From assembly GCA_965248755.1 (NCBI GenBank), contig OZ252149.1, positions 2,944,001 to 3,008,000 on the forward strand: DNA of 64,000 bases. The letters are read 5' to 3'. The position numbers are program-made. Each line of letters begins with the position of its first letter. Positions within the stretch are counted from its first letter, which is position 1. This document shows positions 45,001 to 51,000 of the stretch, one piece after another. The DNA comes from Candidatus Latescibacterota bacterium. Lineage in GTDB: Bacteria > Latescibacterota > CBDEFO01.

Positions 45001-48000
45001 CAACTACTACCTTATATACTCCCGGTTCCAGAAATGCCTGAAGCCCTTTACCCTTGACAACCACCTCATCGGTGGCTTGGTCAACAACCCTGAAATCGAG
45101 CTCGGGAATACCTCCGCTGTACAAGATAAGGACCCCTTTTCCCTCCGGTATCGTTGCCAATTCATCCTTCTTGCTGTACTTCCCTGACGAAGCGCATCCC
45201 ATCAACCAGGCTGCGATGACCAGAACTAATATTATAGCCCGTCCAGGCCTGAATCTGATGTTCTGTCTCCCTACGCTCTCTGATCTCTCCACTACGGTCT
45301 GTAAGTCGGGTGTCTGTGATGTCATGGATGATTACCTCCGTTAGTTAGCTCTCTTAATGGAAAGGAGCCTATGAGGCCTGCAAGAGGAGTTCTCCCTCAG
45401 TTGGAAAACGTTGACTTGATGCGGCCCCAGGTGTCAGCCCCAACCTCCGAGCTGTCAGCCTCAACAACGCCATCGTTGTCATCAAAATGGTCAATGATAA
45501 TGATAACCGGCTCAAAATCAAGCAGGATGTAGTCAACAAACGTAGAGGCATCGAAGTTGGTCGCTGCGGCGTGACTGTTCGTCCACCAGCCTCCGTCGTA
45601 CCCAAGATCATCTGGATCGTCACTGTCCTTAACGGCGAAGACGAGTCCTATGATGTCTCCCGCTTTCAGGGTGTGTACTACGCTCTGATCAATACCTTCA
45701 GAATTAAGGTCGTCAAACGGAGTGACGGCTATCTCTACAGTCTGGACACCTTCCCCACCTACGGTGCCATGAAAACTCCAGCCGATGTCGGCATAAGGAG
45801 GCTTATCTGCCCACGTGGCCGATCCCCAAATAGAGAGCGGATTGTCTCTGTTCAGATAATACCGATAACTCTGTGCCTGAGCTGAGTTGTGCCTGTCCGG
45901 ATCCCTGTCCTGTGGAGGCATGCCCATGTACTGCCCTCCGCTGTGGTCAGCATCTATGCCAAATTCGATGTTTTCCTCACGGTCGTCAGCAGTTAACCGT
46001 GCATTAGAGTGGTCGTCACATCTCTCCTCCCAAAAATAGATCATGTTGGTCACGGGACTCCATCCTATGACTACCTTCACGGCGAGGCTGGCGGGGTTCG
46101 GATTATCAAACCCCCCTTTGACGGTCTCTTTCAGATCATCGTGCGTTAAATAGTACTGTCGAGGATACATCTGCCACTCGGAGCCATCACCGTCCACTTC
46201 AATATCGTCGGGAACCCTGGGAGCGACAAAGGTCTCATCTAACCTCAGGTGAGCGGACCCCATCGAAACAGTAAAAAGCACGAATCCCAGAGCTGTAAAT
46301 ATCGCAAATAGTGTTTTCATCGTCATATCCTTTAGTTCAGTTCGAGAAGGTTGACTTGATGCGGCCCCAGGTGTCAGACTCAACTGCTGTGCCGGGCACC
46401 CAGATACTCGGATCAAAATCAAGCAGGATGTAATCAATAAACGAATCCGCATTAATCCAAGGCGCAGTACTCGAACGATTAAAGGAGTCGGCATTGGCGA
46501 AACTGCTAGACCACCAGCCTCCGTCGTAGTTTCTTAAATCATCGGGATTGTCATCGTCCTTAACGGCAAAGACGAGACCTATGATCTCTCCCGCTGCAAG
46601 GATGTGTACTACGCTCTGATCAATACCTTCAGAATTCAGGTCGTCAAACGGAGTGACGGCTAATTCTACAGTCTGGACGCCTTCCCCACCTACGGTGCCG
46701 TGAAAACTCCAACCGAGGTCGGCATAAGGCGGCTTAACTGCCCACGTGGCCGATCCCCAATGCCAGAGCGGATCCTCTCTGTTCAGATAATAGCGATAGT
46801 TCTGAGCTTGAGATCCGTCCCACCTGTCCGGATCAATGTCTACATACGGGTGCATGTACAATCCTCCGCTGTGGTCAGCATCAATGCTAAATTCGAGGTG
46901 TTCCGAACTGTCGTCAGCAGTTAACCGTGCATTAGAGTGGTCGTCAAATCTCTCCTCCAAAAAATAGATCATGTTGGTCACGGGACTCCATCCTATGACT
47001 ACCTTCACGGCGAGGCTGGCGGGGTTCGGCTCATCAAACCCCTCCTTGATGATCTCTTTCAGATCATCGTGCGTTAAATAGTACTGTCGAGGAAGCAATT
47101 GCCACTCGGACCCATCACCGTCCAGTACAACGGTCCGCGTACCAGCGTGCATCCCCGGAGTCCCATCAATGGGCAACATGGGAGCGACAAAGGTCTCATC
47201 TAACCTCAGGTGAGCCGACCCCATCGAAATAATAAACAGGAGAACTCCCAGTACCGTAAATATCGCAAATAGTGTTTTCATCGTGATAGTCTTTAGTTCA
47301 GTTCGAGAAGGTTGCTTTGATGCGTCCCCAGGTGTCAGACTTAACTGCTGTCCAGATCCCAGGCTCAAAATCAAGCAGGATGTAATCATTAAACTCATCC
47401 GCATGGTACTCGCCGCCGGCGAAACTGCTAGACCACCAACCTCCGTCGTAGCCTAATTCATCGGGATTGTCACTATCCTTAACGGCAAAGACGAGTCCTA
47501 CGATCTCTCCCGCTGCAAGGGTGTGTACTACGCTCTGATCAATACCTTCATAATTCAGGTCGTCAAACGGAGTGACGGCTATCTCTACAGTCTGGACGCC
47601 TTCCCCACCTACGGTGCCGTCAAGACTCCAGCCGATGTCGGCATAAGGAGGCTTAACTGCCCATGTGGCCGCCCCCCAATACCAGAGCGGATCCTCTCTG
47701 TTCAGAAAATAGCGATAGTTCTGAGCTAGAGATCCGTCCCACCTGTCTGCATCAATGTCTGACGTAGACATGGACATGTACCGTCCACCGCTGTGGTCAG
47801 TATCGATGCCAAATTCGAGGTGTTCGTTACGGTCGTCAGCAGTTAAGCGGGCGTTAGAGTGGTCGTTAGATCCGTCCCACCCGGCCGGATCCACGTCCTG
47901 TAAACCCGAGGACATGAACCGTCCACCGCTGTGGTCCGCATCGATGCCAAATTCGATGTTTTCCTGACGGTCGTCAGCAGTTAACCGTGCATTAGAGAAG

Positions 48001-51000
48001 TCGTCAAATCTCTCCTCCCACATATAGATCATGTTGGTCACGGGACTCCATCCTATGACTACCTTCACGGCGAGGCTGGCGGGGTTCGGCACAGGAAACC
48101 CCCCTTTGACGACCTCTTTCAGATCATCGTGCGTTAAATAGTACTGTCGAGGAAGCAATTGCCACTCGGAGCCATCACCGTCGAGTACAATCGTCCGCGT
48201 ACCAGCGTGCATCCCCGGAGTCCCATCAATGGGCAACATGGGAGCGACAAAGGTCTCATCTAACCTCAGGTGAGCCGACCCCATCGAAATAATAAACAGG
48301 AGAACTCCCAGTACCGTAAATATCGCAAATGGTGTTTTCATCGTTATATCCTTTAGTTCAGTTCGAGAAGGTTGCTTTGATGCGGCCCCAGGTGTCAGAC
48401 TCAACTGATGACCCATCCAATGTCACCCATTGTTCCGGATCGAAAGGAAGTAGAGTGAAGTCATTGAAGGTATCCGCATTTTGGAACACATGCGCGCCTC
48501 CGACCGTATAGTAGCCACCGTTACCTTGTTGGATGCCAATTTGTTCCTCGTCCGGTCCAGCGAGATAGTCAGTGTCTTCAACGGTAAAGCCTATTCCGAT
48601 GATTTCTCCCTCTTTCAGGGTGTGTACTACGCTCTGGTCGATACCTTCAGGGTTCAGATCGTCAAACGGCGTCACGGCCATCTCCACAATCAGGTTGCCC
48701 GAGTCACCCAGCTCGCCATCAAAGCTCCAGCCGAACTCGGAATACGGAGACACGTTTACCCACGTAGCTGCTCCCCACAACCAGACCGGATCCTCTCCGA
48801 TCACAAAATATTGCCAATGCTGAGCATGAGATGAGCCGTGCCTGTCCGGATCCACATCCAACCCGAAGTTTTGGAACCGTCCTCCGCTGTGGTCAGCATC
48901 CACGCCAAACGCAACCGTCTCCTCAATGTAGTACATTTTCCAACCGACATAAACATCGTCAAATCTATCCTCAAACCAGTATATCTTGTTGGTCACCGGA
49001 CTCCATCCTATAATTATCCGCAAGGCGAGGTCAGAGGGGTCTATAGCCTCTGACCATTCCCCGATCATTATCAGATCCTCGTGCGTTATCCAGAACGACG
49101 GGTCAATATTTGCCCACTCGCTGGTATCACCGTCTGGTATAAACTCGCTGAACCCAGGCCTACCAATAGGCACCTGGACAGCGACAAAGGTCTTATCTGA
49201 CCGTAGGTGAGCAGAACTCTCCACGACAGCAAGAAATACAAATCCCAGTGCTGTAAATATACAAAACAGTGTTCTCATCGTTATATCCTTTCCCTCAGTT
49301 GGAAAACGTTGACTTGATGCGGCCCCAGGTGTCAGATTCAACCGCTGTGCCGGGCACCCAGATACTCGGATCAAAATCAAGCAGAATGTAATCAGTAAAC
49401 AAATCGGCATCGCCCTTGTACCCTGACGCTGAGTTGTGACTGATAGACCACCAGCCTCCGTCGTAACCAGGATCATCGGGATTGTCATTGTCCTTAACGG
49501 CAAAGACGATGCCTACGATCTCTCCCGCTGTAAGGGTGTGTACTACGCTCTGATCAATACCTTCAGAATTCAAGTCGTCAAACGGAGTGACGGCCAACTC
49601 TACAGTCTGGACGCCTTCCCCACCTACTTCGCCATCAAAACTCCAGCCGATGAAGGCATAAGGAGGCTTAACTGCCCACGTGGCCGAACCCCAATGCCAG
49701 ATGGGTTCCTCCCTGTTCAGATAATAGCGATAGTTCTGAGCATGAGATCCGTCCCATCTGGCTGGATCAATGTCCTCTGTATACAGCTTCATGTACACTC
49801 CTCCGCTGTGGTCAGCATCGATGCCAAATGCGAGGTGTTCATTACGGTCGTCAGCAGTTAAGCGGGCGTTAGAGTGGTCGTCAGATCCGTCCCACCTGGC
49901 CGGATCCACGTCCTGTGAATAAAACACGTACCTTCCTCCGCTGTGGTTAGCATCGATGCTAAATTCGAGGTGTTCATTACGGTCGTCAGCAGTTAAGCGG
50001 GCATTAGAGTGGTCGTCAAATCTCTCCTCTAAAAAATAGATCATGTTGGTCACCGGGCTCCATCCTATGGCAACTTTCACGGCGAGGCTGGCGGGGTTCG
50101 GCGTATCAAATCCCCCCTTGATGGTCTCTTTCAGATCATCGTGCGTTAAATAGTACTGTCGAGGAAGCAATTGCCACTCGGACCCATCACCGTCCACTTC
50201 AATATCGTCGGGAACCCTGGGAGCGACGAAGGTCTCATCTAACCTCAGGTGAGCCGACCCCATCGAAACAGTAAAAAGCACGAATCCCAGAGCTGTAAAT
50301 ATCGCAAATAGTGTTTTCATTGTGATATCCTTTCGCTGGGAATAATTAACAGGGATCCTACTTCATCAAAACCAGCTTCTTCGACTGCCCAAATCCCTCC
50401 GTCTTCAAGCGATACAGATAGACCCCACTGGCAAGACTTTTACCATTGTCATCTTTGCCATTCCATATTACGGAGTAGCTACCGACTGATCTGTAACCAT
50501 CCACCAACGTTGCAACCTTATGTCCCATCAGATTGAACACAGATAGCTCAACGTGACTTTGGACAGGAAGGTCATAGTGGATCACTGTTTGGTGGTTGAA
50601 GGGATTGGGATAGTTCTGGGCTAGGGAGTAAGCTTCAGGAACGTTTAATGATGGTTCTTCATACTCTGTTACAGCAGTGATAGGTATATCAGAAAGATTC
50701 ATCAACACTGACACATTACCGCTGCTAAAATTACCTACGGCCAGATCATTATCTCCATCCCCGTCCAAATCTGCACTGAATACTGACCGCGGTTCGTCCC
50801 CAACTGCATAGTCCACTCTGGCTGCAAATTGCCCAGCTCCATTATTCAAAAACACTGATACAATGTTGCTGAACCTATTGGCCACAGCTAAGTCACTATC
50901 TCCATCTCCATCTAAATCTGCGCTGAATACTGATGTGGGAAAATCTCTTGTAGGACCAATATCAGTGGAGTAGTCCACATTAGTTGCAAATGAACCATCC

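Follow-up and report, generated by a model that had tools for sequence, protein, structure and literature searches.

A C-terminal tail on unrelated exported proteins of Latescibacterota and an NTF2-fold lipoprotein as its candidate reader

Known short C-terminal signals combine either a membrane helix with a protease or a folded domain with a barrel. The tripartite signals (LPXTG, PEP-CTERM, GlyGly-CTERM and MYXO-CTERM) are described in the accessible part of bioRxiv 10.1101/2023.06.07.544157 as short C-terminal elements present in many copies on carriers with signal peptides, with three near-invariant residues, a transmembrane segment and a basic cluster. According to the accessible parts of PMC11969387 and PMC12618676, the T9SS CTDs are C-terminal tags found on many Sec-exported proteins and served by a dedicated envelope reader, type A (TIGR04183/PF18962) with PorV and type B with PorP/SprF; such a CTD folds into a beta domain of 43-100 residues which is bound by a barrel and, in type A, cleaved by PorU.

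The window analyzed here is a stretch of 64,000 nucleotides from Candidatus Latescibacterota bacterium (contig OZ252149.1, positions 2,944,001 to 3,008,000). On its minus strand, five paralogues (49-82% identical) follow one another in tandem, with spacers of 16 nt. Their true starts are located at 50320, 49278, 48341, 47281 and 46320, and all of them terminate in [TS]WGxIK followed by five residues. The features are listed below.

49295..50320, minus strand: paralogue 1 (341 aa), a tail-bearing exported protein of CBM9-like type
49298..49348, minus strand: tail of paralogue 1, used in the complex model
48358..49278, minus strand: paralogue 2 (306 aa), tail at 48361-48411
47298..48341, minus strand: paralogue 3 (347 aa), tail at 47301-47351
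46337..47281, minus strand: paralogue 4 (314 aa), tail at 46340-46390
45397..46320, minus strand: paralogue 5 (307 aa), tail at 45400-45450 with TWGxIK kept and a degenerate first half
50358..53132, minus strand: FG-GAP/TIG protein bearing a T9SS type A CTD, immediately upstream of the array
16837..16866, minus strand: decayed 3' end of the array family, with tail, behind a TPR gene

Paralogue 1 has no match in Pfam or NCBIfam and its relatives give weak CBM9_1 matches; Rfam has no match between positions 44000 and 54000 of the window. The CTD linker of the FG-GAP/TIG protein likewise opens with T-A-V.

The core of the tail, [TS]WGx[IVL]K, is matched 27 times in the six-frame ORFs of at least 60 aa of this genome. 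In 24 of these cases the stop is no more than 15 residues away, whereas such positions, by their share of the total, would account for 3.4. Dropping one match judged to be due to chance (2575174) and adding one M-for-I variant gives a set of 24 carriers, small proteins from 10 unrelated families spread over 16 separate loci: the window family accounts for 11 paralogues and the BNR propellers for 5, the other 8 being singletons. Among the carriers, one is a fragment cut by an IS and another is without a clear start. The signal-peptide hydropathy test is passed by 20/24 carriers as compared to 709/2597 background ORFs, and by 55/66 and 53/58 members of further tail-bearing sets. With an HMM of the tail, three further copies, all degenerate, are detected, as well as a weak match on a lipoprotein. 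The tail is about 18 residues long and displays a strand-forming T-A-V-E-x-x-T followed by W-G-x-I-K-x-x-F, a helix in structure models. It lies near the C-terminus in many copies per genome with invariant signature residues; the Lys is followed by only 3-6 residues in 73 of 81 matches, without any hydrophobic transmembrane helix, and the consensus has a single terminal Arg or Lys or none, a terminal basic cluster being absent. On the carriers scanned, the tail itself is matched by none of the Pfam and NCBIfam models, and the T9SS CTD models TIGR04183, PF18962 and TIGR04131 do not match it either. In a literature search whose coverage left out most subscription papers and supplements, nothing was found on this tail or on the lipoprotein discussed below, and the spelling WGxIK is absent among the best literature matches listed. 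The tail is real, and the data support its reading as a hitherto undescribed tag at the C-terminus of exported proteins that are otherwise unrelated; they agree with the initial annotation on the number of carriers (at least 24), their enrichment in signal peptides, the weaker copies found by HMM and the lack of a database model.

Proteins of the MinD/FtsA kind use an amphipathic helix in order to bind the membrane, and such a helix could also stick the cargo to the bilayer without a protein reader. The W, I and F/Y residues do fall on the same face of the helix, flanked by a Lys, at the very end of the protein. The mean hydrophobic moment (0.37) is however not higher than that of background C-termini (0.34 +/- 0.17), and the simple amphipathic helix was rejected on this ground. 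The invariant W-G-x-x-K, together with the V-E at a fixed place upstream, points to a shaped site instead, and the tail also occurs on proteins that are already lipid-anchored, all of which makes direct membrane binding very unlikely.

A back-translated tail pattern was present in 80 of 151 genomes of the phylum, with up to 56 copies per genome and a total of three matches for the reversed control; no genome of families f7, f13 and f14 contains it (0/30, 0/19 and 0/2). The tail marks many uncharacterized exported proteins of Latescibacterota and also of Eisenbacteria, Krumholzibacteria and Fermentibacterota, in whose records it recurs, with a sister form in Poribacteria. Five tail-rich genomes outside the phylum carry 8-48 tails each. 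A protein profile search returned 38 matches, among which P0125 and P0155 are chance repeats. Two lipoproteins in this set, both members of an NTF2-fold lipoprotein family, bear four tandem copies each, in line with the tandem tails initially reported. Since such tandem and internal copies on lipoproteins favor binding over cleavage, the earlier preference for a binding motif rather than a cleaved signal is judged the more likely.

The initial annotation had proposed as reader a giant barrel, or the TPR-ExbBD system, with the same range as the tail. The 900-aa protein is indeed a large beta-barrel in its structure model, and fold searches with it retrieve generic large barrels only (best Z 15.0, rmsd 8.9, 437 aligned); a 1568-aa ORF also considered as a barrel is an FtsX/M28 protein instead. 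Inside the phylum the two ranges do run together, barrel matches being strong in f1, f2, f3, f5, f8, f9, f10 and f12, weak in f6 and f11 and absent from f4, f7, f13 and f14, and tail genes head the barrel loci in this genome and in relatives as had been noted. This linkage is nevertheless limited to one cargo family, with CHU_C-type CTD genes in between. Outside the phylum, the barrel profile finds nothing in the five tail-rich genomes (0/5, in a search run there without a positive control using a profile that detects the family inside the phylum). The barrel was rejected as a universal reader and its part in reading the tail is highly improbable; the initial interpretation is supported in part, as regards the C-terminal tag and the binding motif.

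The A-type member of the NTF2-fold lipoprotein family is a better candidate reader than the giant barrel. A conserved pair of such lipoproteins, A and B, is encoded beside two PorV/PorQ barrels, which in this genome are located at 637095 and 638114, and in an operon that includes an M50 protease gene in 10 of 20 loci. The two copies of A in this genome (G000) lie outside the window.

G000:C1:634631-635335, strand not given: lipoprotein A, candidate reader
G000:C1:1524965-1525606, strand not given: lipoprotein A, second copy, candidate reader

The model of B displays a cone-shaped NTF2/SnoaL alpha+beta fold (pLDDT 87.6, C-terminal helix 89) that matches generic NTF2 folds only (best 3rob_A, Z 14.5, rmsd 2.0, 123 aligned). 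A is homologous to B by profile and has no solved homologue by the same means (best E 0.47); no Pfam or NCBIfam model matched this family, and a word-based homologue search for B returned one relative. B ends in a tail-like helix, with a C-terminal TWGxLR, which A usually lacks. Of 39 A-type homologues, 17 have nothing beyond the final strand, 15 bear a tail-like helix at this place, and some bear 2-4 canonical tails. An HMM built from cargo tails only scores at least 5 bits on 10/23 B ends, as compared to 32/4655 background ends, most of which are carriers themselves. In all 23 B proteins, an invariant Glu occupies the motif matching the acidic site of A and an Arg or Lys is present in the helix. 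The A profile, which was built from the same groups in which A is detected, matches 42/42 genomes of tail-bearing families and phyla (Poribacteria genomes not included) and 0/16 genomes of f7, f13 and f14, three families whose lack of tails may reflect one single loss. As A is also present in the tail-poor families f4, f6 and f11, and B look-alikes occur in Ignavibacteriota and Bacteroidota, A is necessary at best and not sufficient. In the A proteins seen in f12, the groove could be blocked by a degenerate helix that these proteins bear themselves.

The complex of A with the tail of paralogue 1, i.e. one tail and one receptor, was modeled with a score of 0.84 (runs 0.84, 0.85 and 0.81), the best of three controls reaching 0.03. 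The mark used for such scores is reached by 116/157 solved pairs and 2/215 mismatched pairs, a calibration that holds only roughly here as the alignments were self-made. The runs have at least 88% of contacts in common, with a partner pLDDT of at least 65. The modeled interface takes in the invariant W21, G22 and K25 of the tail together with I24 and F28, and K25 contacts residue 84 of A, which is Asp or Glu in 25/25 rows of the A alignment. Conservation of A at the interface (0.46) is overall no higher than in the rest of the protein (0.43). Natural fusions of A with the tail exist and one of the 25 A input rows contains a tail copy, so that the model may echo an arrangement within a single chain.

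The same fusions would also be expected if the NTF2 groove were filled only within one chain and the tail served as a self-assembly or oligomerization element, or bound another envelope protein. Such a role would fit the large number of cargo genes (at least 24 in this genome) relative to two receptor genes, as well as the occurrence of A and B in tail-poor lineages. It is less easily reconciled with the 17 of 39 A-type proteins that are devoid of a helix of their own and still keep the acidic residue, or with the presence of A in every tail-bearing genome searched, and we consider it distinctly unlikely.

The reading that we prefer, with a probability of about 0.6, takes the tail for a portable peptide that serves in docking and, as modeled, would be read by the NTF2/SnoaL-fold lipoprotein A. 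The cargo, which carries signal peptides, would presumably cross the inner membrane by the Sec route. The A-V-E-x-x-T part of the tail would then run beside an edge strand of A, with the W-G-x-I-K-x-x-F helix in the groove of A, where the Lys is predicted to meet the Asp or Glu. The operon partner B would fill a like groove with a helix of its own, the C-terminal TWGxLR, and the tag is most likely a portable copy of this helix, as suggested by sequence likeness and interchange. Lipoprotein A may hold the cargo non-covalently at the envelope, retention resulting from its lipid anchor, or pass it to the PorV/PorQ barrels encoded next door; docking on the surface side of the outer membrane is slightly favored over the periplasmic side. 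More tentatively, and with somewhat less than even chances, this could represent an unprecedented general display system of several uncultured diderm phyla, in which an empty-groove lipoprotein would accept any exported protein ending in a copy of its sister's helix and bring it to, or hold it at, the surface with T9SS-type PorV/PorQ barrels. The tag, which up to dozens of genes per genome would employ, would then be a 15-residue, non-covalent and exchangeable alternative to the T9SS CTD.

The tail is seen to replace other binding or sorting modules. It takes the place of the type A CTD in two cargo families, one with a cohesin-like domain (29% over 190 aa, E 5e-19) and the other being P0164, for which a word-based homologue search returned six relatives, and the window family in f6 has a PKD domain where others have the tail. 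The CTD swaps would also suit a minimal T9SS signal, read by a PorV/PorQ-family shuttle or by SprA, then cut at T/AV and anchored by PorU, the NTF2 contact being a side effect of common origin. This genome encodes SprA, PorU, seven PorV-family barrels over the cut-off and 93 type A CTD matches, and SprA and the PorV family occur in 5/5 tail-rich genomes outside the phylum. A CTD gene is present no more than 3 kb away from 17/24 tail genes (10/16 loci) as compared to 370/3632 background ORFs, and 18/24 tails of this genome fit x[TS]/[GAS][VI], resembling the PT/GI cleavage consensus found in the accessible part of PMC11969387. The same part of that source gives 43-55 residues and three strands for the shortest known CTDs, whereas the tail is helical and far shorter. 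Outside this genome the cleavage pattern is present in only 11/77 tails, with Pro at +1 in 29/77, and tandem or internal tails on lipoproteins suit binding better than cleavage. SprA is found in 22/23 genomes, tail-less families included, and was rejected as a distinguishing factor; a 1207-aa SprA-remote protein was rejected as well, since it was not found in f12 (0/14) and is present in tail-less families. The sister tail occurs in Poribacteria, for which the accessible part of PMC3909097, based on single-cell genomes of 2014, reports that no structural T9SS genes were found. Searches for GldM and GldN, run without a positive control, gave no match anywhere and are uninformative. A narrow TAVE-linker pattern precedes 4/89 CTDs, T[AD][VI] precedes 16/74 as compared to 56/2037 windows, and a looser pattern 25/74 as compared to 318/2037, so that the linker shared by tail and CTDs is no more than modest. 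Taken together, a minimal T9SS signal is unlikely, and docking on lipoprotein A remains the preferred reading.

With a receptor named, two small proteins and a peptide are enough to test the question, and no culture is needed. The answer would bear on cargo handling by T9SS-like machines outside Bacteroidota, and the pair may provide a small tag and catcher for protein display. If the reading is true, a 15-residue plug and a lipoprotein socket would constitute a new class of signal and a means, so far undescribed, of attaching proteins to the envelope. The closest parallel is offered by the T9SS CTDs, which are likewise C-terminal tags on many exported proteins, can be swapped with the tail on two cargo families and have a similar T-A-V linker, the candidate receptor genes of the tail lying beside PorV/PorQ barrels; the tail differs from these folded, barrel-bound domains in being a strand and helix of about 18 residues, modeled on an NTF2-fold lipoprotein. 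With the tripartite signals the tail has in common its short length, C-terminal position, many copies, near-invariant residues and signal-peptide carriers, and it differs in having neither a transmembrane segment nor a basic cluster. Lipoprotein B resembles NTF2/SnoaL-like proteins in its fold, no family member having been solved, and the role of peptide socket proposed here from modeling would set the family apart. In cohesin-dockerin anchoring, and in the donor-strand complementation of type V and chaperone-usher pili, a terminal element completes the groove of a partner. The modeled attachment of the tail is a non-covalent plug and socket of the same sort; it would differ in its folds, in showing neither calcium-binding repeats nor a filament, and in its plug, a 15-residue strand-helix apparently derived from the receptor family's own C-terminus.

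The stretch contains the following tandem array, whose members are spaced by 16 nt and share 49-82% identity.

Window 45397-50320, minus strand: five tandem CBM9-like paralogues

All five proteins end in [TS]WGxIK followed by five residues. In two of them (window 46337-50320) a stretch of about 40 residues is duplicated internally, and the fifth has a changed stretch ahead of the tail. In the source genome (G000), which the names of close homologues also place in Latescibacterota, the core motif was matched 27 times, of which 24 lie at most 15 residues from the stop versus 3.4 expected (six-frame translation). 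After removal of one match as chance and addition of one variant, the carrier set comprises 24 proteins in 10 families: 11 of the window CBM9-like family, five BNR propellers and eight singletons, CHRD and cohesin-like proteins among them. The W, G and K of the tail are invariant. The carrier ORFs are small (median 313 aa, maximum 401), the median of proteins with a type A CTD (T9SS C-terminal domain) being 625. A signal-peptide test is passed by 20 of the 24, compared to 709 of 2597 background ORFs, and the tail matches no Pfam or NCBIfam model on the carriers scanned. The initial annotation, which had described a C-terminal tail absent from these databases on unrelated proteins with signal peptides, is thereby confirmed. 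At G000:C1:4125946-4128372, a CBM9-like domain is fused to CarboxypepD, DUF2092/LolA-like and thioredoxin domains instead of the tail.

The pattern V-E-x-x-[TS]-W-G-x-[IV]-K matches 80 of the 151 genomes of the phylum, the reversed control giving three matches in total. Among the Latescibacterota families, f1, f2, f3, f5, f8, f9, f10 and f12 are rich in tails, f4 (1/5), f6 (2/13) and f11 are poor, and the pattern is absent from f7 (0/30), f13 (0/19) and f14 (0/2). With a looser pattern applied to 45 genomes, the excess above control is clear mainly in the rich families. At least 130 stretches were matched in a species collection; in the 80 examined, 77 of 81 distinct matches lie at most 12 residues from the stop, 73 of them at 3-6. 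These records are titled Eisenbacteria, Krumholzibacteria, Latescibacterota, Handelsmanbacteria, Aegiribacteria and others. A signal peptide is present in 55 of 66 complete carriers, and 18 of 59 carriers scanned have a Pfam match, mostly beta-helix, LamG, LTD, CHRD, cohesin, MAM or DUF. There is a sister form with five extra residues between V-E and W: 77 of 78 metagenome matches end at most 8 residues from the stop, and Poribacteria names are borne by 7 of the 10 clusters looked up. For Poribacteria, the accessible portion of PMC3909097 describes CTD-like domains without any structural T9SS genes; under the terms searched, none of its passages concerns the tail.

The tail is exchanged with other C-terminal modules. 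A tail-bearing cohesin-like protein of G000 is homologous to a type A CTD-bearing one (29% over 190 aa, E 5e-19), and its 28 homologues in relatives carry the tail (5), a type A CTD (4) or another end (9), or extend beyond the locus (10). Tail and type A CTD also alternate in a second cargo family (P0164), at the same linker. Homologues of the window family in tail-poor f6 end differently in 25 of 30 ORFs, with PKD in all four scanned. A CTD gene is located within 3 kb of 17 of the 24 G000 tail genes, versus 370 of 3632 background ORFs. Given these swaps and this proximity, the tail behaves like a module for binding or sorting, located at the C-terminus of proteins encoded among T9SS cargo genes. 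G000 contains SprA, PorU and PorV, and a whole-genome search run without positive control did not find GldM or GldN, hence the question of how its T9SS is energised. That the tail is a minimal T9SS signal which PorU cleaves is unlikely: the PT/GI-like cleavage site described in the available part of PMC11969387 is fitted by 18 of the 24 G000 tails but by just 11 of 77 elsewhere, where Pro occupies +1 in 29 of 77, and the shortest known CTDs given there measure 43-55 residues. A 1207-aa protein containing a short stretch that resembles SprA (G000:C1:2891270-2894893) occurs in 31 of 45 genomes and in 0 of 14 from f12.

One reader considered for the tail was a giant barrel of about 900 aa, an unnamed family with Asp-rich repeats represented by these members.

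G000:C1:1471899-1474610: 900-aa large-barrel family member
G000:C1:239976-242753: 900-aa large-barrel family member
G000:C1:2143172-2148908: 900-aa large-barrel family member

Tail genes precede the family at three loci of G000 and also in relatives. Its structure model is that of a large barrel of the outer membrane (pLDDT 68, best Z 15.0), and single f12 genomes contain up to about 40 matches. The claimed agreement in range with the tail holds inside the phylum and fails outside it, the barrel profile being empty in five of five genomes carrying 48, 27, 26, 10 and 8 tails and possessing SprA and PorV-family barrels. The barrel therefore cannot be the general reader and was rejected as such; that it reads the tail at all is highly improbable. 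Its cassettes encode CHU_C-type CTD proteins together with a PPIase and a tail-bearing CBM9-like protein. The adjacent CHU_C-type CTD genes appear likelier partners of the barrel, by analogy with type B cargo, whose shuttles are encoded nearby according to the portion of PMC12618676 available. The barrel could thus far be a shuttle or transporter dedicated to such cassettes. Two PorV/PorP-like barrels in the window (59100-60041 and 62307-63257, plus strand), split by an IS transposase (60629-62026), resemble the pair flanking a TPR-ExbB-ExbD-DUF4159 operon (G000:C1:2734391-2742010). By eye, an SPFH-like gene (window 35827-38801) is likewise split by an IS transposase (36587-37993), and the RlmN-like gene at 35325-35861 has a partial duplicate.

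The lipoproteins with tandem tail copies previously retrieved by profile search were verified and belong to the family of a lipoprotein at G000 635459 (B), itself a weak tail-HMM match. B is an NTF2/SnoaL-fold protein (structure model, pLDDT 87.6, Z 14.5) whose last helix reads TWGxLR (pLDDT 89). Using a cargo-only HMM, 10 of 23 B ends score at least 5 bits versus 32 of 4655 background ends. The conserved operon comprises a CTD-bearing propeller, two PorV/PorQ barrels, an M50 protease, B, its paralogue A and a polysaccharide deacetylase, each occurring at 10-12 of 20 loci. In four genomes outside the phylum (loci L220, L221, L223 and L226), a 660-720 aa protein matching no Pfam or NCBIfam model precedes B instead of the PorV/PorQ pair. 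Among 39 A-type proteins, 17 end directly after the last strand, as do both G000 copies, 15 have a tail-like helix there and 7 differ. The second copy (G000:C1:1524965-1525606) is 70% identical and directly follows a secA-like gene (by eye), as in a relative (G002). All 42 genomes from families and phyla with tails are matched by the A profile, and none of the 16 from f7, f13 and f14; the tail-less families may reflect one single loss. The range of B resembles that of A, and its look-alikes reach Ignavibacteriota and Bacteroidota. A is also found where tails are few, and in tail-rich f12 it has its own degenerate helix.

G000 A and the window tail were folded as a pair. The complex scores 0.84, the best of three controls 0.03, with at least 88% of contacts in common between runs and partner pLDDT of at least 65. 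In the calibration, 116 of 157 solved pairs reach this score mark, against 2 of 215 mismatched ones; it holds only roughly, since own alignments were used for the complex model. Tail residues 15-26 and 28-29 are predicted to contact A: A-V-E-x-x-T lies alongside strand 151-159, whereas packing against residues 66-94 and 142-161 involves W, G, I, K and F. K25 contacts residue 84, which is Asp or Glu in all 25 A rows; the matching motif of B has Glu and the B helix Arg or Lys, each in 23 of 23 rows. Taken as a whole, the interface is conserved no better than the rest (0.46 vs 0.43). The model had no solved homologue of A to recall; one A alignment row contained a tail copy, and the geometry may have been learned from natural A-tail fusions.

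With a probability of roughly 0.6, we consider the tail a docking peptide. Cargo exported by Sec would place its tail, a putative portable copy of the B helix, in the modelled groove of A, thus docking non-covalently on this lipid-anchored protein, and would then stay there or move on to neighbouring barrels. A self-assembly element or a different reader is quite unlikely, and a lipid-binding helix very unlikely.

No description of the tail was found in the literature searched, most subscription papers and supplements lying outside that search. The tail does not fit the definition of tripartite C-terminal signals, as set out in the accessible part of bioRxiv 10.1101/2023.06.07.544157, nor that of T9SS CTDs. 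As a docking peptide, it would work like a CTD-shuttle pair or a dockerin-cohesin pair.
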